A program made the position numbers and the translations under genes. The notes under the pieces were generated by a model, which made no database searches, was not told the origin of the DNA, and worked only from the letters and a program-made list of their open reading frames with translations. Positions 7,092 to 35,323 of a DNA stretch of 40,889 nt are shown piece by piece. The DNA lies in contig DASXRM010000030.1 of NCBI GenBank assembly GCA_036506575.1, positions 1 to 40,889 on the forward strand, given 5' to 3'. Source of the DNA: Gemmatimonadales bacterium. Lineage in GTDB: Bacteria; Gemmatimonadota; Gemmatimonadetes; Gemmatimonadales; GWC2-71-9. Every line of letters starts with the position of its first letter. The first letter of the stretch is position 1.

Positions 7092-7271
7092 AGGGTCCTC
7101 AACGTACGGCAAAGTACTCAGCGCACTGAGCTACCGCCCTGCGGGAGTGCGTGATCGGGTCGTCCGTTTCCCCGCGCTGCTCCTCATCCGAGCTCACCCT
7201 TCGCCAACGTCGAGCTAACCATGTGGCGTGAGATTCTCTCCTTTTTCAACAAAACGGATACGGAGGCAGTT

Positions 7272-7784
7272 ATGGCTGGAGAATTCTACATCGGTGAATC
7301 GTTGGTCGGAGAGGGCAATGAGATTGCTCACATCGACCTGATCATCGGCTCGAAGAGTGGTCCAGCGGGCGCGGCCTTCGTCAATGCGCTCTCGACCCAG
7401 ACCGATGGCTTCAATCATCTCCTCGCCGTCGTCACGCCGAACCTTCCCGCGAAGCCGGACACCGTGCTCTTCAACAAGGTCACGATCAAAGGCGCCAAAC
7501 AGGCTGTTCAGATGTTCGGCCCAGCGCAGGCGGCGGTTGCCCGGGCGGTGGTGGACAGCGTCGCCTCGGGAGTGATCGACAAGAGCAAAGCGAACGACCT
7601 CTGTGTTGTGGTGGGCGTGTTCATCCACTGGCAGGCCGAGAACGACAAGAAGATCTTCGACTACAACTATCAGGCCACCAAGGAATCGATCCAGCGGGCG
7701 TTGCAGGGCAAGCCGACGGTGGACGAGGTGCTGCAGCGGTACAAGGCCGCGCGCCACCCGTTTGCCAGCGGTGCCGAGGGCTGA
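7272..7784 (+). CDS. fae: Formaldehyde-activating enzyme
   Basis: 'GESLVGEGNEIAHIDLIIG', 'LLAVVTPNLPAKPDTVLFNKVTI', 'QAVQMFGPAQAAVARAV' and 'VGVFIHW' match the Fae of methylotrophs as I remember it. The internal ATG 7272 is preceded by GGAGG (7263-7267) and is preferred over track start 7221. Confidence 0.93.
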   Translation: MAGEFYIGESLVGEGNEIAHIDLIIGSKSGPAGAAFVNALSTQTDGFNHLLAVVTPNLPAKPDTVLFNKVTIKGAKQAVQMFGPAQAAVARAVVDSVASGVIDKSKANDLCVVVGVFIHWQAENDKKIFDYNYQATKESIQRALQGKPTVDEVLQRYKAARHPFASGAEG

Positions 7785-9814: not shown

Positions 9815-10970
9815 CACCAATCGGGGGCATGTGTTGATCGCGGGGACTACCACCCGGGCTCTCGCTGTCTCCGCCGCGCGAGCCGGCTACCGGGTAACGG
9901 CCATAGACGCGTTTGGCGACCGGGATCTTCGCGCCGTGGCAGAGGTGATTCTGGCGCGCCCCAAGCCGGGCCGGAACTACAGTCCGCTCACGGCCGCGGC
10001 AGCCGGAGCGCGCATACCCGCGGAGCTGGTCGCATATACCTCGAATTTCGAGAACTATCCCCATGCCGTGGCCCGATTGTCGGAAGGACGGCGGCTTCTG
10101 GGCAACCCGCCTGACGTGCTCGAGAGAGTTCGGAACCCGATCGAGCTGATGCGCGCCCTTCGGCGGCACGGCCTCCCGTCACCGGAGTCCCGAGCTGGAG
10201 CGCCAGCAGCCGGACCGGGACGCGGTTCCTGGCTCTTGAAGCCCCGCCGGTCCGGTGGTGGTCATGGAGTTAGAGTCTGGCGGCGGGGTGACTCAGTGTC
10301 GCGGAGCCGGTATCTCCAGCGGCGTATCATCGGCATTCCGGGCTCGATCATCTTCGCCGCGAATGGGTCTACTGCGGTGATGCTGGGGTTCTCCCGCCAA
10401 CTGGTGGCCGAACCTCACCTGGGAGCAAAGGGCTTCCGCTACTGCGGCAGCATCCTTGGGACTCTCCAGACCGCCCTCTTCCCCCGGCAGCAGGAGCTGC
10501 TCCGAACGGCGGGCGTGGTCGCTGGGGTCTTGACTCGGGAGTTCGAGCTGACCGGGATCAACGGGATCGATTTCATCGCTCGGGACGGCGTGCCCTACCC
10601 CATTGAGGTGAACCCACGCTACTCAGCATCCATGGAACTGGTCGAGCGGGGTCAGGGCATTTCGATATTTGAAGTGCACGCCCAAGCGTGCCACGGCGTG
10701 CTGTCGGCCGTCCCCGCCCCCGGTGTCATGGTGCAGGGGAAGGCGATCGTGTTTGCTCGACAGGACGTTCGGATCGGCCATTCACCCCAATGGGGTGCCG
10801 ATAGATGGATAGCGGACATACCACACGCAGGCGAGCGGATCCCGCGTAGCCGCCCCATCTGCACTGTATTTGCGGAGGCCGGCAATCCAAATGCTTGCCG
10901 GCGACTCTTGGCCCGCCGGGCCGGGGCAGTCTATCGCGCTCTCGAATCGCGCCAAGGTTGCGCAGCATGA
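9807..10970 (+). CDS. ATP-grasp domain ligase (cofactor biosynthesis; MfnD/ATP-grasp_3-like)
   Basis: N-terminal Rossmann-like 'VLIAGTTTRALAVSAARAGYRVTAIDAFGD'; 'WLLKPRRSGGGHGV'; 'GINGIDFIARDGVPYPIEVNPR' is typical of an ATP-grasp C-domain. There is an 8-nt overlap with the upstream gene and an ATGA overlap with fhcB. Confidence 0.7.
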   Translation: MVDTNRGHVLIAGTTTRALAVSAARAGYRVTAIDAFGDRDLRAVAEVILARPKPGRNYSPLTAAAAGARIPAELVAYTSNFENYPHAVARLSEGRRLLGNPPDVLERVRNPIELMRALRRHGLPSPESRAGAPAAGPGRGSWLLKPRRSGGGHGVRVWRRGDSVSRSRYLQRRIIGIPGSIIFAANGSTAVMLGFSRQLVAEPHLGAKGFRYCGSILGTLQTALFPRQQELLRTAGVVAGVLTREFELTGINGIDFIARDGVPYPIEVNPRYSASMELVERGQGISIFEVHAQACHGVLSAVPAPGVMVQGKAIVFARQDVRIGHSPQWGADRWIADIPHAGERIPRSRPICTVFAEAGNPNACRRLLARRAGAVYRALESRQGCAA

Positions 10971-12241
10971 GCTCTGATAGCCGGGTCGAGCACGTCACCT
11001 GCCTGGGCTGCGGCTGTGGATGTGATGACGTCACGGTCAGCGTGAGCGCGGGCCGGATTCTCGATGCGTCTCCGGTTTGTCCGATCGGGCGCGCCTGGTT
11101 CGGCGATGGGCTGGTCCCGTCGGAGGTCCTACGCGATGGGCATCCGGCCTCACTCGCGGAAGCCCTGGCAGAGGCCGCCTCCGTCCTAGTCAGAGCCAGA
11201 GGACGCTGCCTGGTCTATGTCGCCCCCGACCTCACTTCCCAGGCTCAACGGGCTGCGCTGACGGTTGCCGATCTCCTGCGCGCCACAGTGGATTGCGCCA
11301 CGTCCCGAACCGCGGCCGCGGGATTGCTCGCCGCTCAACGTCGCGGCAGAGCCGGGGCGACGCTGGGCGAGATCCGGAACCGGGCCGACGTCCTACTCTT
11401 TTGGGCGGTCGATCCGCTCCACCGCTACCCTCGCTATCTGTCGCGCTACGCACTGGAACCGGTAGGCACCCAGGTTCCGAAGGGCCGCGCAGGGCGCTTC
11501 GTGATATCGGTAAGCATTGGCGACGAGAAGGCCCTGACTGGAGCTGATCTCCACCTCGAGCTCCAACCCGAAGAGGAGATCACAGCCCTGTCGCTCATGC
11601 GAGCCTCGATCCTGGGCCACACGATGCCAAGCTCCTCACCCGCAATTGCTCAGGCTGTGGAGATCGCAGCCCGGCTGGCTCGATCCCGTTACGCCGTACT
11701 GGTCCACGACGCCGAACCAACTGCAGAGCGGCAGGATCCGCTCCGGGTCGAGGCCCTGATCGCCCTGACTCAGGCTCTTAACGGCCCCGCCCGGGCGGCG
11801 CTGAGCAGCCTTCGAGCCGGCGGCAATCGTACCGGAGCGGAAGCGGTGCTCACCTGGCAAACCGGTTACCCGTTTGGGGTCGACTACTCGCGCGGTTATC
11901 CGCGCTACGCCCCAGGCGAACGGGGCCTGGCCCGGGTAGCGACCGGTGCTTTCCAGGCGGTGTTGGTAGCCGGCTCACCGTTGCTCGACGGCCCGGCGGG
12001 AACGGAGTTGTCGGAGGTGAGCACCGTCGCGATAGGACCGAAGGTGAGCCAAGCGGCGTTCAAGACCAGGGTGGCCATCGACACCGGCGTCGCGGGGATT
12101 CATGAAGCCGGCACGGCATATAGGATGGATGAGGTTCCCCTCTCGCTTCGGGCGCCTCTCACCGCTCCTCGCTCAGCCACCGAGGCGCTCCTCGCCCTCA
12201 CCGATGCCATACGGGCAGAGCTCCGGCGGGGTCCCGGATGA
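10967..12241 (+). CDS. fhcB: Formyltransferase/hydrolase complex subunit B (formylmethanofuran dehydrogenase subunit B homolog)
   Basis: N-terminal Cys cluster 'VTCLGCGCGCDD' and molybdopterin-oxidoreductase-like body. ATG 10967 overlaps the upstream stop (ATGA). The track's longer start 10895 would overlap the ATP-grasp gene. Confidence 0.85.
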   Translation: MSSDSRVEHVTCLGCGCGCDDVTVSVSAGRILDASPVCPIGRAWFGDGLVPSEVLRDGHPASLAEALAEAASVLVRARGRCLVYVAPDLTSQAQRAALTVADLLRATVDCATSRTAAAGLLAAQRRGRAGATLGEIRNRADVLLFWAVDPLHRYPRYLSRYALEPVGTQVPKGRAGRFVISVSIGDEKALTGADLHLELQPEEEITALSLMRASILGHTMPSSSPAIAQAVEIAARLARSRYAVLVHDAEPTAERQDPLRVEALIALTQALNGPARAALSSLRAGGNRTGAEAVLTWQTGYPFGVDYSRGYPRYAPGERGLARVATGAFQAVLVAGSPLLDGPAGTELSEVSTVAIGPKVSQAAFKTRVAIDTGVAGIHEAGTAYRMDEVPLSLRAPLTAPRSATEALLALTDAIRAELRRGPG

Positions 12242-13881
12242 GCCGCCCGACTCAGCTTCGCATAGCCGGTGGGACCGTCTACGATCCCGCGAATCAGGTT
12301 GACGGCGACATTCGCGACGTCTGTGTCGAGGATGGCCGGATCGTCGCGAGCCTGCCGGATGGAGCCCCGAGACTCGAGGCGGGTGGCATGATCGTGATGC
12401 CGGGTGGGGTCGACATCCACTCTCACCTGGCGAGCTCCAGCTGCAACCATGCCCGGCGGCTACTTCCCGAGGAACATGCTGCGGACCCGGTGCCACCGCC
12501 TGATCTTCGCGATGGCTCGAGTCCGAGATCCGGCACGGGAGGTACCGTGCCCAGCACCTTCACCACCGGGTACCGCTACGCCGGCTTGGGATACACCACG
12601 GTATTCGACGCGGCCGTAGCACCGCTCATGGCCCGGCATAGTCACGCCGAGCTGGAGGACACCCCCTGTGTGGACGGCGGGATCTTCGTCCTCCTGGGGA
12701 ATGATGAGTATCTCCTGCGGCAGGTGGCCGCCGGCGAGCGGGAACGGGCTCGAGACTATGCGGGGTGGCTCATCGGTGCCACAGGCGGGTATGCCATCAA
12801 GATCGTAAACCCGGGCGGTGTCGAGGCGTGGAAATCAGGCCAGCGGAACCTGAACGGGCTGGATGACAGCTTGGCCGGGCGCGGGGTCACTCCGCGAGCG
12901 ATTCTGGAGACGCTGGCCGATGCCGGCAACCAGCTGGGTTTGCCCCACCCGGTCCACATTCATTGCAACAACTTGGGGGTGCCGGGGAACGCCGCCGTCA
13001 CGCTCGCCAGCATGCAGGCGCTTGCCGGTCGCCGGGCTCACTTTACCCATCTGCAATTCCATAGCTATGGTGGGCCCGGTTGGAGCTCCGCTGCGTCGAC
13101 CGTGATGGAGTACGTCAACGCGCACCCCGAGGTGAGCGTGGACGTGGGACAGGTGATGTTTGGGCCGGCCACCACGATCACCGCCGATAGTCCGGTTGAG
13201 TACCTGCTGCACAAGAGCAGCGGACGAAAATGGGTCAACATCGACATCGAGTTGGAGACCGGCTGCGGCATCGTTCCGTTTTCCTATAAGGACAAGGCGG
13301 CGGTGTCAGCATTGCAGTGGGCGGTGGGACTCGAGCTGTTCCTTCTGAGTCATGATCCCTGGCGGGCGGTCCTCTCCACCGACCACCCGAATGGCGGGTC
13401 CTTCCTCTCCTATCCGGCTCTCATTCAGCTCCTGATGGATCGGAGCGTGCGCGATGACCGGCTCAAGCAGGTGAACCCCAAGCTGCTGGCGGGGTCCGCC
13501 CTCGCCGACGGGCTCGCGCGCGAGTACACCCTCAACGAGATCGCCATCATCACTCGGGCCGGCCCCGCCCGCCTCCTGGGTCTCGGCCACAAGGGGCACC
13601 TCGGCCCAGGAGCCGACGCCGACATCACGATCTACGTGAGAGATGGGGATATCGCCAAAATGTTCGCGACGCCGCGGTACGTGATCAAGGGAGGTGCACT
13701 GCTGGTCGAAGAGGGTCAGCTACGTCGAGCACCGGCCGGCCGCCGGTTGCATATCCGGCCGAGCTACGACAGCGCGCTGCTACCCGACTTGCGGCGCTAC
13801 TTCGATGCGTACTCGACTGTTTCCTTCGAGAACTATCCGGTCGGAGAGATTCCTGATGATCCAATCCCGATTTCATCCTGA
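12238..13881 (+). CDS. fhcA: Formyltransferase/hydrolase complex subunit A (FwdA-type amidohydrolase)
   Basis: 'IAGGTVYDPANQVDG...DVCVEDGRIVA', 'MPGGVDIHSHL' (metal-binding HxH of amidohydrolases) and 'HIHCNNLG'. ATGA overlap with fhcB. Confidence 0.9.
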   Translation: MSRPTQLRIAGGTVYDPANQVDGDIRDVCVEDGRIVASLPDGAPRLEAGGMIVMPGGVDIHSHLASSSCNHARRLLPEEHAADPVPPPDLRDGSSPRSGTGGTVPSTFTTGYRYAGLGYTTVFDAAVAPLMARHSHAELEDTPCVDGGIFVLLGNDEYLLRQVAAGERERARDYAGWLIGATGGYAIKIVNPGGVEAWKSGQRNLNGLDDSLAGRGVTPRAILETLADAGNQLGLPHPVHIHCNNLGVPGNAAVTLASMQALAGRRAHFTHLQFHSYGGPGWSSAASTVMEYVNAHPEVSVDVGQVMFGPATTITADSPVEYLLHKSSGRKWVNIDIELETGCGIVPFSYKDKAAVSALQWAVGLELFLLSHDPWRAVLSTDHPNGGSFLSYPALIQLLMDRSVRDDRLKQVNPKLLAGSALADGLAREYTLNEIAIITRAGPARLLGLGHKGHLGPGADADITIYVRDGDIAKMFATPRYVIKGGALLVEEGQLRRAPAGRRLHIRPSYDSALLPDLRRYFDAYSTVSFENYPVGEIPDDPIPISS

Positions 13882-13950
13882 TTACGGGAGCGATGGTCAT
13901 CCCTTCACCCTGCTTAGGGCAGGCTCTGAGCGGAGCGAAGGAGCCGAAGC

Positions 13951-14853
13951 TTGAAGATCCGCGGCGTCTTCATCGAGGACACCTTTGCCGAAGCGTTCAC
14001 CATGCGGGTGGCGCGGATCGTCATCACCGCCCACAGTCCTCGCTGGGTCCGCGCGGCCGCGCTCAAGCTGACCGGCTTTGCCACCTCGGTCATCGGGTGC
14101 AAGGTGGAGGCCGGCATCGAGCGGGAGCTTCCGGCGAGCGAGACACCGGACGGACGGCCCGGTATCAGCATTCTCCTCATGACGATGGGCAAGGACGATC
14201 TGGGCAAGCGGCTCATCGAGCGGATCGGCCAGACCGTCCTCACCTGTCCTACGACCGCCTGTTATGATGGGCTCCCCGAGGCGCCGGATCGGGTCGGCGT
14301 CGGTTCGGCGCTGCGATTCTTCGGCGATGGCTTCCAGATCAGCAAGGTCATCGGCGGCGAGCGATTCTGGAGGATCCCCGTAATGGAAGGTGAGTTTCTG
14401 GTCCAGGAGAAGTTCGGAATGCTGAAGGGAGTCGGTGGCGGGAACTTTCTCATCCTGGCTCGCGCCGCGGATGCCGCACTCGCCGCAGCGGAGGCCGCGG
14501 CCGACTCGCTGGCCTCCCAGCCCGGCGTCATCCTGCCCTTCCCGGGGGGCGTGGTCCGAAGCGGCAGCAAGGTCGGCTCCCGTCGCAGTAAGACGATGAT
14601 CGCTTCGACCAACGATGCCTTCTGCCCAACCCTCCGTGCCGTAACTCAGACGGCACTGCCGGAAGAGGTGAACTCCGTGCTCGAGATCGTGATCAACGGC
14701 ACCGACGCGGCGGCTATCGCAGCTGCCATGAAGACCGGGATCGACGCTGCCTGCCGGGAGGGAGTCGTGGCGATCAGCGCCGGAAATTACGGCGGCAAAC
14801 TGGGGCCCCATCACTTCCATCTGCGGAAGATCATGAACGGAGCCCAGGGGTGA
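13951..14853 (+). CDS. fhcD: Formylmethanofuran:H4MPT formyltransferase
   Basis: 'IEDTFAEAFTMRVARIVITA', 'TGFATSVIGCKVEAGIE' and 'GGNFLILA' are typical of Ftr/FhcD. The start is TTG, so somewhat uncertain. Confidence 0.88.
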   Translation: MKIRGVFIEDTFAEAFTMRVARIVITAHSPRWVRAAALKLTGFATSVIGCKVEAGIERELPASETPDGRPGISILLMTMGKDDLGKRLIERIGQTVLTCPTTACYDGLPEAPDRVGVGSALRFFGDGFQISKVIGGERFWRIPVMEGEFLVQEKFGMLKGVGGGNFLILARAADAALAAAEAAADSLASQPGVILPFPGGVVRSGSKVGSRRSKTMIASTNDAFCPTLRAVTQTALPEEVNSVLEIVINGTDAAAIAAAMKTGIDAACREGVVAISAGNYGGKLGPHHFHLRKIMNGAQG

Positions 14854-15617
14854 GCGGCGGACTGGTGGTCCGGTTGAAGGCATCGCTCCAGCAGCGGGCC
14901 GATTTCTCGGAGGTGCTGGCGGGACCGTGGACCACGCTCTCGGCTCGGGAGCTGGCACAGCGTCCCATCTACCTCGAGCGTGATGGCCGCGTCCCGCTCG
15001 GCGACCTCTTCGAGGTCCGGGGTGAGCCCAATGGCAGAGTCCACTTCGCGGGCGACCTCGAGCGGGTGGATCGTCTCGGTGCCGGGTTGAGTCAGGGAGA
15101 CGTAATCGTCGAGGGGAGTGTGGGCAGCGAGGCTGGGGTCGGGATGGCGGGCGGATCATTGGATATCGATGGCGATGCCGGCTCGCGCGCCGGCGCCGCT
15201 CCGCTGGGCTTCAAACGAGGCATGACCGGTGGTGAGCTGATCGTACGCGGCTCGACGGGGGCCGAGGCTGGGGCTGCCATGCGTCGAGGTCTTCTGGTCA
15301 TCCAGCGGAGCGCCGGTAGCCGGACCGGGCTCGGCATGATCGCGGGTAACGTGATCGTGTTGGGGGCGGCCGGGCCTGAGACCGGACTCTGGTCGAAGCG
15401 CGGGTCGGTCGTAGCTCTGGGACGGATCATACCGCCCGCGACCTACTCCTACGCCTGCACCTACCAGCCGATTCACCTGCGCCTGATGCTGACGCGCCTG
15501 CGGGTGCGGTATGGCCTGCCAATTCATCGGCGGCACCTGACGGGACTCTACCGCCGCTACAGTGGCGATCTCGCCGAGTTGGGCAAGGGAGAGATTTTGC
15601 AATGGACAGCCAAATGA
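14850..15617 (+). CDS. fhcC: Formyltransferase/hydrolase complex subunit C (FwdC-like, GXGXG repeat domain)
   Basis: Repeated 'VEGSVGSEAGVGMAGGSLDIDGDAGSRAG...IVRGSTGAEAGAAMRRGLLVIQRSAGSRTGLGMIAGNVIVLG'. GTGA overlap with fhcD. Confidence 0.88.
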   Translation: MSGGLVVRLKASLQQRADFSEVLAGPWTTLSARELAQRPIYLERDGRVPLGDLFEVRGEPNGRVHFAGDLERVDRLGAGLSQGDVIVEGSVGSEAGVGMAGGSLDIDGDAGSRAGAAPLGFKRGMTGGELIVRGSTGAEAGAAMRRGLLVIQRSAGSRTGLGMIAGNVIVLGAAGPETGLWSKRGSVVALGRIIPPATYSYACTYQPIHLRLMLTRLRVRYGLPIHRRHLTGLYRRYSGDLAELGKGEILQWTAK

Positions 15618-16594
15618 CAGCAGTCGAGACGCAAGTGGCATCTCTCAGAATGAACGAGGCCGCAAGCGAGATCGCGGATGGGATGGCGGATCAGGCCGAC
15701 CTGCTTCGGATTCGAAGTTACCGGCTGCCCGGTGGTGCCCGGGTCATCGATGCCGGCGTTGAGGTCGATGGGGGCATCGAAGCCGGGCTCGCGCTCTCGG
15801 AGATCTGCCTGGGTGGACTGGGGAACGTGACCACCACGCCGGTCCAGGTTGCCGGGGAGTCGTACCCTGGCCTGATGGTCTGGACCGATCACCCAGCGGT
15901 AGCGTGCATGGCCTCCCAGTACGCCGGCTGGGCAATCTCGGTGGGGAAGTTTTTTGCCATGGGCTCGGGTCCCTTGCGGGCCCATGCGCGGGTGGAGCGG
16001 GAGCTGTTTGAGAAGTTGGGGTATGAGGAGCGGGCTGAGGAGGCGGTGCTCGTGCTGGAGGGCCGTACCCTACCGACCGATGAAGTGGCAGCCTGGGTGG
16101 CCGAGAAAGCGCGGCTCCAACCGGTTCAGCTCACCTTTGTGGTAGCACCCACCGCAAGCCTCGCGGGTGGCGTCCAGATTTCGGCCCGGATCATCGAAAC
16201 CGGCCTTCACAAAATGGAGACACTGGGCTTCGACGTGCGCCGGGTGGTGAGCGCGATCGGCACCGCCCCGTTGGCGCCGGTGGCCAAGAACGACCTCAGG
16301 GCAATCGGGCGGACCAACGACTGCATCCTCTATGGCGGACAGGCACGGTTTACCGTGCGGGCCGCCGACGCCGAGCTGGAAAAACTCGCGGCCCAGGTGC
16401 CGGCCTCGGCCTCGCGAGACTACGGCACGCCGTTCTACGAGATCTTTCAGCGCTACCAAGGGGACTTCTATAAGATCGATCCGCTGCTGTTCAGTCCCGC
16501 CGAGGTCTGGCTCACCAGCACCGAGACCGGACGAACTTTTCACGCCGGCCGCTTGAACCCCGAGGTCCTGGCGGCCTCGCTCTACAACCTTTGA
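15614..16594 (+). CDS. mch: Methenyl-H4MPT cyclohydrolase
   Basis: 'LPGGARVIDAGVEVDGGIEAGLALSEICLGGLG', 'CMASQYAGWAI' and 'AMGSGPLRA' are Mch-like. ATG 15614 overlaps the fhcC stop (ATGA); 15602 is the alternative. Confidence 0.9.
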   Translation: MTAVETQVASLRMNEAASEIADGMADQADLLRIRSYRLPGGARVIDAGVEVDGGIEAGLALSEICLGGLGNVTTTPVQVAGESYPGLMVWTDHPAVACMASQYAGWAISVGKFFAMGSGPLRAHARVERELFEKLGYEERAEEAVLVLEGRTLPTDEVAAWVAEKARLQPVQLTFVVAPTASLAGGVQISARIIETGLHKMETLGFDVRRVVSAIGTAPLAPVAKNDLRAIGRTNDCILYGGQARFTVRAADAELEKLAAQVPASASRDYGTPFYEIFQRYQGDFYKIDPLLFSPAEVWLTSTETGRTFHAGRLNPEVLAASLYNL

Positions 16595-16608
16595 TCCGGG
16601 AGCCCTTC

Positions 16609-17403
16609 ATGCGACGTCCCTCGAGCTGGTTAGGCTGGTTACTGGTCCCCGGGTTCGCGCTCGCCGCCTGCACCAGGACCGGGGAAAAGGGAGCGGAGAC
16701 TCGCGGCCAAGACACGACGGCGGCGACTGCGCCGGCCCCCGCCGGACCGATGGCGATCGCCACGGTTCTCTATAACCAGCCGAAGGACACGGCCGCCTTC
16801 GAGCGGTACTACCGGTCGACTCACCTTCCCCTCCTCGTCGCCAACCAAAAAGAGATCGGGTTCATGCGGGCCGATCTCACCAAGTTCCTCTCCACCGTCG
16901 AGGGCAAGAAGCCAACCATCTACCGCCAGGCGGAGCTGTACTTCAACTTGGACGATCTCAAGAAGGGTATTGCAACGCCGGGGTTCAAGAAGGTGGCGGA
17001 CGACCTGCCGAAGTTCGCGACCGGCGGACTGACCGGCATGATCGCGACGGCCTCGAACACCCACGAGGCGGGCTCAGCCGGTGCCCCGGCGGCCATCGTC
17101 ACGGTCATTTACAACCCGCCGAAAGACCCGGCTGCCTTCGAGAAGTATTACTCCGGGACCCACCTTCCCCTGGTGACGGCGGGCAAGGGCGAGATCGGCT
17201 TCGAGCGAGCGGAGTTTACCAAGTTCGTCTCCAACCTCGACGGCTCTCCGCCGGCCCGCTATCGCCAGGCCGAGCTCTACTTCCCATCGCTGGCGGCGTT
17301 GAAGAAGGGAATCGCCACTCCGGCGTTCAGCCAGGTGGCCGGCGACCTGCCCAAGTTTGCCAGCGGAGGCTTGGACGCTCTGGTCGGAGTGGAGACCAAG
17401 TAA
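16609..17403 (+). CDS. Exported lipoprotein with two tandem EthD-like domains
   Basis: Signal plus lipobox MRRPSSWLGWLLVPGFALAAC. Two ~105-aa repeats follow: 'IATVLYNQPKDTAAFERYYRSTHLPLL...IYRQAELYFNLDDLKKGIATPGFKKVADDLPKFATGG' and 'IVTVIYNPPKDPAAFEKYYSGTHLPLV...RYRQAELYFPSLAALKKGIATPAFSQVAGDLPKFASGG'. Both match the EthD pattern. GGGAG lies 7 nt before ATG 16609. Confidence 0.8.
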   Translation: MRRPSSWLGWLLVPGFALAACTRTGEKGAETRGQDTTAATAPAPAGPMAIATVLYNQPKDTAAFERYYRSTHLPLLVANQKEIGFMRADLTKFLSTVEGKKPTIYRQAELYFNLDDLKKGIATPGFKKVADDLPKFATGGLTGMIATASNTHEAGSAGAPAAIVTVIYNPPKDPAAFEKYYSGTHLPLVTAGKGEIGFERAEFTKFVSNLDGSPPARYRQAELYFPSLAALKKGIATPAFSQVAGDLPKFASGGLDALVGVETK

Positions 17404-18273
17404 GTGCACCTGGCCGTCCTCGCCGCTCGCACCGGCTGGCACACGCAACAGCTCGAGCAGGCGGCCGCGAAGCGGGGACACCAGGCGACAGTGCTGCCGT
17501 ATGAGGGACTGGTGGCCAGCATCGGACCGGCGCCGGGACTACGTAGCCGGACGACGGAACTGGATGCGGTCGATGTGGTGCTGGCTCGGATCATTCCGTC
17601 GGGCTCGCTCGAGCAGATCATCTTCCGGGTCGACGCGCTCCACCGGCTGGAAGACCGCGGCATCAGGGTGGTGAACTCGCCCCGGGTTATCGAGCGCACG
17701 GTAGACAAATTCTGGACCTCCGCGTTGCTCGAGCGTTGTGGCATCCCTACTCCAGAGACGATCGTCTGCGAGAGCCCGGACGAAGCCTTTGCCGGCTTCC
17801 GGGCCCTAGGGGACGTGATCGTGAAGCCGCTCTTTGGCTCGATGGGGCTCGGCATGGTCCGGGTCAGCGACGAGGAGATGGCGTTTCGGGTCTTCCGCAC
17901 CATCGAGCAGATTCGAGGCGTCTACTACTTGCAGCGCGCCATCGACCACGATGGCGCCGATATTCGTGCCTTCGTCGTTGGTGGTCGGGTACTCGGTGCC
18001 ATCGAGCGCCTGGCCCATGGTTGGCGCACCAACCTCGCCCGGGGCGGAACGGCTCGGGCAGTGACGCTCACCGATGACCGCAGCGCCCTCGCCGTTCGGG
18101 CTGCGGCCGCAGTGGGCGCCGACTATGCTGGGGTCGACCTCCTCACGGCACGCGACGGCAGGACCTACGTGCTCGAGGTCAACGGGATTCCCGGCTGGAA
18201 GGGCCTCCAAGAGACCACTGGGCTCGATGTAGCGGGGCGACTGATAGACCATCTGGCGCTTCGAGATCAGTGA
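17404..18273 (+). CDS. mptN: RimK-type ATP-grasp alpha-L-glutamate ligase (H4MPT:glutamate ligase MptN-like)
   Basis: 'VVNSPRVIERTVDKFWTSALL', 'VIVKPLFGSMGLGMVRV', 'DIRAFVVGGRVLGAIER' and 'GVDLL...YVLEVNGIPGW' show RimK-family architecture. The symbol is assigned from context. Confidence 0.75.
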   Translation: MHLAVLAARTGWHTQQLEQAAAKRGHQATVLPYEGLVASIGPAPGLRSRTTELDAVDVVLARIIPSGSLEQIIFRVDALHRLEDRGIRVVNSPRVIERTVDKFWTSALLERCGIPTPETIVCESPDEAFAGFRALGDVIVKPLFGSMGLGMVRVSDEEMAFRVFRTIEQIRGVYYLQRAIDHDGADIRAFVVGGRVLGAIERLAHGWRTNLARGGTARAVTLTDDRSALAVRAAAAVGADYAGVDLLTARDGRTYVLEVNGIPGWKGLQETTGLDVAGRLIDHLALRDQ

Positions 18274-32848: not shown

Positions 32849-33505
32849 GCCCGTCTAAGCCTTCCGTAATCGGCCACTTGGCAGGCCTCGAGAAGGGCTC
32901 GGCCGGGCCTCTCGCGTTGACCTGCCCCCTGCGGCGAGGACCGGAGAACGCTGCGGCGGCATCACCATACGAGGGCATGCTGCCTCCCCAACGGTAGTTT
33001 TTTACTGGCACACAAAGGGTTCGGCGGCGCCCCTGAGGAATGTGATGGGCTTGTTCCGGTTCGCTGGAATCGTCTCTTCGATGCTCAATCCGCTGTGGGT
33101 CGGCGGAGCTGGGAGCCGTTGGCAGGAAGTCCTGTGGCGGCGCCATGTCTCCTCGATGCGCCAGTGCAAGTCTCTCGAAGTTCCTTCCCTGCTCGCTCCC
33201 CAGTCCCTGTTTCCAACTCGCGCGATCAACTCCCAAGCTTCGGATCGCGCTTCCCAATCCATCCAGCGGGCCTCCTTCACTCGTAGACGTACCGGGACCG
33301 CAAGCACGCTCCGCCGGTGGATGCTCCCGACAGTCGAGCGCGGGCCTCCGGTCCCCAGCGGCGTTTGAACCTCGGTCCTGTAGTCCTGGCCCGAGCCGGC
33401 TCTCGTGGTAGACGAGCCCCGTTCGCCACCAGATCTCTAGTAACCGCAGAGCGTAACACGGAATGGAAGTCAGTAGGAGAATCACCCTTTTCCCTGAGGT
33501 CAGTT

Positions 33506-35323
33506 ATGAACCGTTTTGCGCAGAAGGTAGTGTCTGGCGGGCTCGCCGCGGGGCTTTCGGTAGCCGTGGCGTTGTCGGCCAGCGCCCAACAGGCACGGTC
33601 AGGGGCATGGACCCTGAATGCGCCCGAGGGCGAATGGCACATGACCGGTCGTGATTACAGCCTGCAGCGGTTCAGCCCGCTCAAGCAGATCACGACGTCG
33701 AACGTGGCCGAGCTCCGGCCCGTCTGGTCGTTCTCGACCGGGACGCTTCGGGGGCACGAGGGCAACCCGCTCGTCATCGGCAACGTGATGTACGTGCACA
33801 CGTCCTTCCCCAACATCGTGTACGCGCTCGACCTCTCCAAGCCCGGCGCGCCGATGATCTGGAAGCACGTGCCCAACCAGTCGCCCGACGCGATTCCTAT
33901 CGCCTGTTGCGACCTGGTGAACCGGGGCACGGCGTATCACCCGAGCGGCAAGATCTTCATTCAGTTGCTCCAGGGTGAGCTGCTCGCGCTCGATGCCAAG
34001 ACCGGTAAGGAGCTGTGGAAGGTGAAGAATGCCGACTACAAGCAGGGCTCCACGATGACCAACGCCCCGATCGTGATCAAGGACATCGTCATCGCCGGCA
34101 TTTCGGGTGGTGAGTTCGGGGTCCGCGGCCGGGTGACGGCGTACAACGTGAACGACGGGAAAGAAGTCTGGCGCGGCTATAGCACCGGGCCGGACAGCGA
34201 AGTCCTCCTCGAGGGCGACGCCAACCCGAATTATCCGTCCCACCGGGGCAAGGACCTTGGGGTCTCGACCTGGCAGGGCGACGAATGGAAGCGGGGCGGC
34301 GGCACCACCTGGGGCTGGTACTCCTACGACCCCGAGCTGAACCTCTTCTATTACAGCACCGGGAACCCGGGCACCTGGAATCCTGACCAGCGGCCGGGCG
34401 ACAACAAGTGGTCCATGACCATCTTCGCCCGCAATCCGGACAACGGGAAGGTGAAGTGGGCCTACCAGATGACGCCCCACGATGAGTGGGACTACGATGG
34501 CGTCAACGAGAACGTCCTGTTCGAGCAGGGCGGGAAGAAGCTGTTGGCGCACTTCGACCGGAACGGCTTCGGCTATACCCTCGACCGGACCACCGGCAAG
34601 GTCCTCGTCGCCCAGCCCTATGGTCCAGTCAATTGGGCCAAGCGGGTTGACCTGACGACCGGCGTGCCGGAAAAGGATCCGAAGTACGGCACCACCTCGA
34701 AGAAGAACACCGAGGGCATCTGCCCGGCGGCGATCGGCTTCAAGGATCAGCAGCCGGCGGCCTACTCGCCGCAGACTGGCCTCTTCTACGTCCCGGCAAA
34801 CCACATCTGCATGGACTATGAGGGCGTCGAGGTGAAGTACACCGCTGGTCAGCCGTACGTCGGCGCGATCGTGCGGATGTTCCCGGGCCCGGGCGGGCAC
34901 CGGGGCAACTTCATCGCCTGGGACCCGATGAAGGGCAAGGCGGTGTGGTCGAACAAGGAGAACCTCGCGGCCTACGGCGGGGCGCTCACCACGGCGGGCG
35001 GACTGGTCTTCTACGGCACCATGGAAGGCTGGCTCAAGGCGCTTGACCAGAAGACCGGCAAGAGCCTGTGGCAGTTCAAGACCCCGTCGGGCATCATCGG
35101 CAACCCGATGACCTACAACGGTCCCGATGGCCAGCAGTACGTGGCCGTGCTCTCGGGCATCGGTGGTTGGGCCGGTATCGGCGTGGCCGCCGGCATCGGC
35201 GCCGAAGATCCCACTGCCGGTCTGGGCGCGCTGGGCGCGTTCGGCGACGCGGGGAACTTCAGCAACCAGGGTGGCGTCTTGACCGTCTTCGGGCTCAAGA
35301 ACCCGAGCACGGGAAAGATGTAG
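33506..35323 (+). CDS. xoxF: PQQ-dependent methanol/alcohol dehydrogenase, XoxF (lanthanide) type
   Basis: Signal peptide MNRFAQKVVSGGLAAGLSVAVALSASAQQ. Vicinal Cys 'IACCDLVNRG' (33905-33910). 'HDEWDYDGVNE' carries the D-Y-D signature (34490-34498) where Ca-MxaF has an Ala in place of the second Asp. Eight-bladed W-rich propeller sequence. GAGG lies 6 nt before ATG 33506; track start 33317 is rejected. Confidence 0.92.
   Translation: MNRFAQKVVSGGLAAGLSVAVALSASAQQARSGAWTLNAPEGEWHMTGRDYSLQRFSPLKQITTSNVAELRPVWSFSTGTLRGHEGNPLVIGNVMYVHTSFPNIVYALDLSKPGAPMIWKHVPNQSPDAIPIACCDLVNRGTAYHPSGKIFIQLLQGELLALDAKTGKELWKVKNADYKQGSTMTNAPIVIKDIVIAGISGGEFGVRGRVTAYNVNDGKEVWRGYSTGPDSEVLLEGDANPNYPSHRGKDLGVSTWQGDEWKRGGGTTWGWYSYDPELNLFYYSTGNPGTWNPDQRPGDNKWSMTIFARNPDNGKVKWAYQMTPHDEWDYDGVNENVLFEQGGKKLLAHFDRNGFGYTLDRTTGKVLVAQPYGPVNWAKRVDLTTGVPEKDPKYGTTSKKNTEGICPAAIGFKDQQPAAYSPQTGLFYVPANHICMDYEGVEVKYTAGQPYVGAIVRMFPGPGGHRGNFIAWDPMKGKAVWSNKENLAAYGGALTTAGGLVFYGTMEGWLKALDQKTGKSLWQFKTPSGIIGNPMTYNGPDGQQYVAVLSGIGGWAGIGVAAGIGAEDPTAGLGALGAFGDAGNFSNQGGVLTVFGLKNPSTGKM

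Follow-up and report, generated by a model that had tools for sequence, protein, structure and literature searches.

In a 40,889-nucleotide (nt) stretch of DNA from a Gemmatimonadales bacterium (contig DASXRM010000030.1, hereafter the window), we find that the gene at 16609..17403 encodes, with high confidence, a predicted exported lipoprotein with two tandem EthD-like domains that holds a conserved place among one-carbon (C1) genes of the tetrahydromethanopterin (H4MPT) pathway. The EthD family is already known but functionally orphan, and the product described here is a lipid-anchored variant with a strikingly conserved genomic association. As the overall best explanation we tentatively propose, rating it a little short of probable, that the protein is a lipid-anchored periplasmic accessory of formaldehyde/methanol oxidation. 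The original prediction, made on this DNA from its letters alone, had described a lipobox-bearing tandem EthD gene lying between mch and a glutamate ligase gene with near-zero intergenic space; the coordinates agree with that placement, and matches in both halves of the product, together with a LAAC lipobox, agree with that architecture. The gene and its parts are as follows.

16609..17403, plus strand: tandem-EthD lipoprotein precursor gene, 264 amino acids (aa) plus stop, from the open reading frame (ORF) and its translation (product P0001)
16609..16671, plus strand: signal peptide, residues 1–21, with lipobox L-A-A-C and the Cys21 codon TGC at 16669–16671, from the lipobox rule given below
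16672..16749, plus strand: Ala/Thr/Pro/Gly-rich tether, residues 22–47, with AlphaFold predicted local distance difference test (pLDDT) <50 for residues 1–45
16750..17058, plus strand: EthD/TIGR02118 domain 1, residues 48–150, from the first stretch matched by hidden Markov models (HMMs)
17059..17091, plus strand: inter-domain linker, residues 151–161, with a pLDDT dip to 56 in block 151–160
17092..17400, plus strand: EthD/TIGR02118 domain 2, residues 162–264, with the best HMM stretch at residues 163–259
16596..16600, plus strand: Shine-Dalgarno-like GGGAG, 8 nt before the ATG, read from the sequence

EthD homology was significant in both halves of the product: TIGR02118 (NCBIfam) matched two stretches of the 264-aa product with 129.1 bits (cut-off 30.5), as did Pfam PF07110 EthD with 55.9 bits (cut-off 22), and each half carries the family motifs Y-x-x-P-x-D, F-E-x-Y-Y-x-x-x-H-x-P-L and Y-x-x-x-E-L-Y-F. 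Aligned over 98 aa, the two domains share 63% identity (E 2e-45). An internal duplication had been proposed to be visible in the DNA itself, and it is indeed present: the direct repeats form three collinear blocks, 73–76% identical, whose period is 339–342 nt.

An AlphaFold2 model computed from a 20-sequence alignment (mean pLDDT 78.9, predicted template modelling score 0.75) shows residues 1–45 as disordered (pLDDT <50), followed by two beta-alpha-beta-beta-alpha-beta domains (pLDDT ~90) separated by the dip at 151–160. Each predicted domain has the ferredoxin-like fold of the dimeric alpha+beta-barrel type. When searched with Foldseek against the PDB, a single domain superimposed on 2FTR (TM-score 0.84, root-mean-square deviation (rmsd) 1.8 Å, 31% identity), which is also the sole PDB match by sequence, and the whole model resembled fused two-domain barrels (5f9p_A over 239 columns with rmsd 3.9 Å, 3f44, 2pgc and 3mcs), with further matches to bacterial chalcone isomerase and chlorite dismutase. 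Thus, the model and these matches support the earlier suggestion that both domains form one fused dimeric alpha+beta-barrel unit within a single chain. PF07110 is the sole Pfam match of the product and the ABM family of Pfam gave none at E ≤ 0.01; the relation to ABM, as judged from the model, is at the level of fold only.

What carries this protein out of the cytoplasm? Its N-terminus, MRRPSSWLGWLLVPGFALAAC (residues 1–21), satisfies a PROSITE PS51257-type lipobox rule at Cys21. We applied the rule as a regular expression modelled on PROSITE PS51257, which asks for a basic residue among positions 1–7, then six residues without charge and finally [LIVMFWSTAG]2-[LIVMFYSTAGCQ]-[AGS]-C; the Cys must fall between positions 15 and 35. 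It is satisfied by 169/171 full-length tandem homologues and 92/93 single-domain homologues, the failures being gene calls that begin at an internal Met. The lipobox Cys lies at position 15–21 in the homologues; each set has a single exception, at 30 or 33. When 20 full-length homologues were aligned, M1, A20 and C21 were invariant and the hydrophobic core was conserved; the tether varied in sequence but kept its character and length (median 26 aa, range 20–35 among homologues). An Arg-Arg pair occurs within the first 8 residues of 123/171 homologues, without the usual hydrophobic pair after it, and nearly all have a short signal peptide whose Cys falls at 15–21. The mature part has a mass of 25.8 kDa and an isoelectric point (pI) of 9.06. 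Residues 9–11 of the window's protein, GWL (16633–16641), form a three-residue insertion in the hydrophobic core of the signal peptide relative to all 19 aligned homologues, shifting the lipobox Cys to 21 from the 17–19 seen in the others.

The public gene call of the same ORF, P0002 (217 aa), begins at Met48 (16750) and so loses the signal peptide. We considered that the signal peptide might be an artefact of a wrong start, a worry that the original prediction had itself raised, and rejected this because the signal peptide and its Cys are conserved in 169 of the 171 full-length tandem homologues; on the same grounds the long start at 16609 is correct. Database entries of the family are often shortened or frameshift-split (P0205/P0237; P0124 to P0141), mimicking short cytoplasmic EthD proteins.

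The EthD gene is packed tightly between its neighbours. In the window, mch ends at 16594, the EthD ATG follows at 16609 (a 14-nt gap), its TAA occupies 17401–17403 and the next gene begins with GTG at 17404. The neighbouring features to which we refer are these.

15602..16594, plus strand: mch, methenyl-H4MPT cyclohydrolase, directly upstream of the EthD gene (Pfam MCH PF02289, 415 bits)
17404..18273, plus strand: RimK-family ATP-grasp glutamate ligase (MptN/MyfB-like), whose start abuts the EthD stop (TIGR00768)
7221–7784: fae
10895–15617: fhcB/A/D/C
33317–35323: PQQ (pyrroloquinoline quinone) dehydrogenase, xoxF-type

Linkage was followed by tblastn of the window's neighbouring proteins across 84 related loci. 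Directly upstream of the EthD gene lay mch in 83/84, the exception being a contig that begins inside the EthD gene, and directly downstream lay the RimK-family ligase gene in 81/84, mostly 1–4 nt from the EthD stop. The order mch, EthD, RimK-family ligase, CitG-like is fixed across the Gemmatimonadales methylotrophy islands examined, and the possibility that the gene has no conserved linkage to C1 genes therefore fails decisively. Three loci (L046, L073, L083) lack the RimK-family ligase gene; there, a CitG-like gene stands directly after the EthD gene and the EthD slot is kept.

The same slot is also occupied by single-domain lipoproteins, which replace the tandem form in three clades at 48–65% identity: P0175 (145 aa), P0219 and P0252 (154–156 aa, a large clade labelled Gemmatimonadaceae) and P0375 (141 aa, 48% identity). 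Because of this shared slot, the C1 linkage, judged from the sequences, predates the tandem architecture. How widely is the family distributed? When one genome per species was scanned, 128 species had a relative, and the best 80 loci of these, which were kept, all come from Gemmatimonadales or Gemmatimonadota metagenome-assembled genomes (MAGs). A word-indexed protein search returned 1415 homologues, the best of which share 72–82% identity along their entire length. Their database names go no further than 'TIGR02118 family' or 'EthD family reductase', and those with a named source come from Gemmatimonadales MAGs. The region is contained only in DNA soil metagenomes.

Two further features of the islands were seen along the way. 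A second, divergent fhcB/A/D/C set (34–58% identity to that of the window) lies directly upstream of the main set in L003 (1–4263) and L004 (1–2657), and likewise in the Gemmatimonadota islands L080, L083, L084, L046 and L073. Islands of the single-domain Gemmatimonadaceae type carry an extra gene of ~390 aa between the PTPS-like and HisA-like genes (L086 8828–9997, L093 6822–7997); it has no Pfam match on record and is absent from the window.

Is an exported tandem EthD protein exceptional? The typical EthD architecture, a single ~100-aa domain without signal peptide, is not that of the 264-aa product, and the original prediction had described known EthD proteins as small, single-domain and cytoplasmic. 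This proved too general. An exhaustive phmmer search of 1.84 billion cluster representatives gave 450 clusters at E ≤ 0.001, from which we classified the N-termini of 146 listed relatives, with domain starts set by HMM coordinates: 51 had no extension, 24 a lipobox, 21 an Arg-Arg pair followed by a hydrophobic stretch (Tat-like, after the twin-arginine translocation pathway) and 11 a Sec-like signal. Thus 56/146 have lipobox, Tat-like or Sec-like N-termini, although the lipobox count of 24 overstates the number of independent exported families, several being fragments or frameshifted calls of the Gemmatimonadales family. Tandem EthD forms without signal peptide exist as well (P0399, P0422). 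With so many exported and tandem EthD relatives, the family stands out less than had been thought; what is distinctive, on sequence grounds, is the lipid anchor combined with a fixed place in the H4MPT-pathway operon of one bacterial order.

The contexts of other relatives differ from this. On one 1.1-kb contig, an acyl-CoA-dehydrogenase-like gene comes after the gene of a tandem lipoprotein with 43% identity, and a 108-aa relative without signal peptide lies beside isochorismatase and PhzF genes, an unrelated context. Contigs of ~1 kb bearing the exported relatives P0357, P0401 and P0372 offered no functional hint. The Tat-like N-terminus, Arg-Arg followed by an Ala/Gly/Leu-rich stretch, occurs in ~21/146 of these TIGR02118 relatives (P0385, P0390, P0401, P0407, P0409, P0416, P0420, P0446, P0491 and others) and suggests a sizeable undescribed set of putatively Tat-exported EthD proteins.

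In a tree of individual domains, a coarse result whose 'single' and 'cytoplasmic' classes are contaminated by truncated calls of tandem proteins, the first domains grouped together (96/89), as did the second domains (99/89) and the 155-aa single-domain proteins (100/99). These three supported clades fit one old duplication. Internal duplication gave rise to the tandem form; the ancestral-looking occupant of the slot is a single-domain lipoprotein, which presumably dimerises. Identity between the first and second domains ranges from 52 to 80% across tandem homologues (median 63%). In P0264, P0281, P0271, P0040 and P0266, the domains are 75–80% identical and fall outside the main first-domain and second-domain clades, which suggests gene conversion between the repeats, or a second or independent duplication, in some lineages. 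The ratio of non-synonymous to synonymous substitution rates (dN/dS) was ~0.19 for the EthD gene against 18 orthologues, compared with 0.17 for fhcC, 0.08 for mch and 0.09 for the ligase gene. Being close to fhcC, this value indicates that the EthD gene is real and under purifying selection.

In the window, the upstream part of the methylotrophy island comprises fae, mtdB, a DUF1464 gene, an ATP-grasp gene, fhcB/A/D/C and mch. The EthD gene is followed by genes for the RimK-family ligase and CitG-like, PTPS-like and HisA-like (minus strand) proteins, then by hydantoinase-like, amino-acid-kinase-like and GGDEF/EAL sensor genes and mfnB, and further on by genes for a short-chain dehydrogenase/reductase (SDR) and a DHPS-like (dihydropteroate synthase) protein, pabB, a GHMP-kinase-fold gene and the PQQ dehydrogenase. 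As had been described, the EthD gene is embedded in a tightly packed fhc-mch-cofactor chain, and no promoter-like or terminator-like sites were found within the 8.7–19.6 kb gene chain; the xox operon lies ~16 kb downstream of the EthD gene. Gemmatimonadetes methylotrophy islands of this type, and abundant XoxF protein in soil, have been reported (PMC5103831). The soil Gemmatimonadales with such islands appear to grow on methanol.

The downstream gene had been called an H4MPT glutamate ligase. Its membership of the RimK family stands (rimK_fam TIGR00768, 218.6 bits, cut-off 143), but the more specific label is uncertain, because the score against the MptN_Meth equivalog model (260 bits) is below the cut-off of 350 and because the RimK-like Orf5 of the equivalent Methylorubrum cluster is MyfB, a methylofuran polyglutamate ligase (PMC8141765). 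By analogy, the gene product may be a MyfB-type methylofuran polyglutamate ligase rather than an H4MPT glutamate ligase.

What might a tandem EthD lipoprotein do in this operon? Exported and lipidated, the protein would hang from the membrane into the periplasm. It would also be made in step with the cytoplasmic enzymes of formaldehyde oxidation, given that 14 nt separate its gene from mch and no gap is left before the next start codon. A protein that faces the periplasm and is produced with these enzymes would act on the periplasmic side of C1 oxidation, on something whose amount tracks C1 flux, as a cofactor-free barrel that binds or converts a small molecule. The fixed operon position makes the protein a good candidate for an undescribed periplasmic C1 helper, and we lean, if only slightly, towards a periplasmic C1-related role.

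Our preferred substrates are formaldehyde-derived species: formaldehyde itself, free or hydrated, and hemiacetals or adducts, as set free by the periplasmic PQQ methanol dehydrogenase. These the barrel would buffer or process ahead of the cytoplasmic Fae/H4MPT module. Formaldehyde species are favoured for two reasons: (i) the operon in which the gene is retained is fae-fhc-mch, not xox, which lies ~16 kb away; and (ii) the founding EthD is required when a cytochrome P450 oxidises ethers, a reaction that gives a hemiacetal, from which an aldehyde is then released. Taken separately, a formaldehyde-specific role is doubtful. More specific still, and distinctly unlikely in our estimate, is the reading in which the H4MPT formaldehyde-oxidation module has, in this family, its first genetically coupled component in the periplasm, a lipid-anchored barrel that captures, buffers or converts formaldehyde, its hydrate or its hemiacetal where XoxF releases it.

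Several observations weigh against assigning the protein to formaldehyde/methanol oxidation. The mature protein contains no obvious formaldehyde-reactive motif, and in 151/169 tandem homologues it has no further Cys. TIGR02118 members are without a defined biochemical function, and the EthD-domain reactions that have been characterised point to aromatic carboxylates, not formaldehyde (PMC10890192). Tat routing was considered, and export may proceed by either Sec or Tat. No RNA run contained the EthD gene. In the first account of Gemmatimonadetes methylotrophy islands (PMC5103831), the EthD gene is mentioned neither in the text nor in the supplements of this soil proteogenomics study, which contain neither 'EthD' nor 'TIGR02118'. 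The evidence base consists of MAGs of one order, and a shared operon alone does not prove a shared function.

In the alternative that fares best, the gene is a hitch-hiker: an envelope lipoprotein unrelated to C1 metabolism, inserted once in an ancestor of the Gemmatimonadales and inherited vertically since. This is possible because the family is confined to MAGs of one order or phylum and because the EthD gene evolves faster than mch and the ligase gene (dN/dS 0.19 vs 0.08–0.09). The neighbours moreover have homologues in the proteobacterial 'archaeal-like' cluster, where no EthD-like gene is known to us or mentioned in the reading consulted (PMC8141765), and exported EthD relatives occur in other contexts. 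Against passive inheritance, the slot survives divergence to 48% identity, the change between single and tandem forms and the loss of the ligase gene (L046, L073, L083), the abutting stop and start are maintained, and purifying selection is like that on fhcC. We regard a hitch-hiking gene as unlikely.

Within a C1 role, the main rival to formaldehyde handling is a partner of the PQQ/lanthanide methanol dehydrogenase, in which the barrel would bind or modify PQQ or aid XoxF maturation or electron transfer. The protein is predicted to face the periplasm and a xoxF-type PQQ dehydrogenase is encoded in the same island (33317–35323). PQQ is an aromatic tricarboxylic quinone, an anionic ligand to which a basic mature protein (pI 9.06) would be suited, and among its relatives by domain or fold, the decarboxylases MdpH/ClaH (PMC10890192) and the anthrone-oxidase-like 5f9p work on aromatic polyketides or compounds resembling quinones. 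The gene, however, is never found in the xox operon: it sits within the fhc-mch-cofactor chain in 83/84 loci, and this placement with formaldehyde oxidation argues mildly against a dedicated XoxF partner, which we consider quite improbable. The protein might instead be a cytoplasmic enzyme that works at one of the unassigned steps in making H4MPT or methylofuran, its hydrophobic N-terminus serving as a membrane anchor or being an artefact. This would suit the flanking genes, which all encode cytoplasmic cofactor or C1 enzymes, the Met48 start of P0002 and the several bacterial H4MPT/methylofuran synthesis steps that are, to our knowledge, unassigned (see also PMC8141765), but it is made very improbable by the lipobox statistics across the tandem and single-domain homologues (169/171 and 92/93), by the basic residues within the first 7 positions ahead of an uncharged hydrophobic region, by the lipoprotein-typical disordered Ala/Pro/Thr tether after the Cys and by the Sec-like or Tat-like signals often found in the nearest relatives.

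In this lineage, the position of a strictly conserved protein, predicted to be exported, in the middle of a formaldehyde-oxidation operon suggests that a periplasmic step or a protective factor is missing from the textbook pathway. A formaldehyde-handling barrel, if true, would explain how a toxic intermediate is transferred from periplasm to cytoplasm in abundant soil methylotrophs, and would provide the first defined activity for the biochemically orphan TIGR02118/EthD family. The family is amenable to direct test, its members being small, soluble without the anchor and confidently predicted in fold, and it could give a way into the function of TIGR02118/EthD proteins, of which many are apparently exported. 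A full-text search found no paper in which EthD and tetrahydromethanopterin co-occur and none that assigns a function to TIGR02118, the one paper that mentions TIGR02118 being, to judge by its title, unrelated; papers on the EthD family, domain or EthD-like proteins mainly concern fungal pigments and toxins, with few on bacterial degradation.

How does the protein compare with known systems? With the EthD/TIGR02118 family, represented by BH0200 of Bacillus halodurans (2FTR) and EthD of Rhodococcus ruber, it shares HMMs, motifs and fold; a typical member is a homodimer of ~100-aa chains, whereas the product here is predicted to be exported and lipid-anchored, with two domains fused. EthD of the eth cluster (ethABCD) has P450 neighbours; the gene here is instead fixed inside an H4MPT-pathway operon, and no P450, ferredoxin or ferredoxin reductase was found among the Pfam-scanned ORFs of the window, some small ORFs lying outside the scan. 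Fused barrels of the PDB, 5F9P (anthrone-oxidase-like), 3F44 and 3MCS (putative monooxygenases) and 2PGC, share the pseudo-dimeric barrel of the model (Foldseek E 1e-7 to 1e-6, 220–244 aligned columns, 13–16% identity); judged by their descriptions, they have no lipoprotein signal, in contrast to the lipobox seen here.

MdpH/ClaH are fungal EthD-domain decarboxylases of aromatic polyketides in anthraquinone/xanthone pathways (PMC10890192). They share the Pfam domain and are the sole EthD-domain proteins with an assigned reaction that we found; they belong to eukaryotic intracellular secondary metabolism, whereas the product here is bacterial and predicted to be exported. Among the named ORFs of the classical proteobacterial 'archaeal-like' clusters, we know of no EthD-like gene. 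MxaJ/XoxJ, MxaD and lanmodulin are extracytoplasmic helpers of methanol oxidation encoded in methylotrophy islands. Their folds are unrelated, and their genes accompany those of the dehydrogenase, whereas the EthD gene lies in the formaldehyde-oxidation/cofactor operon.

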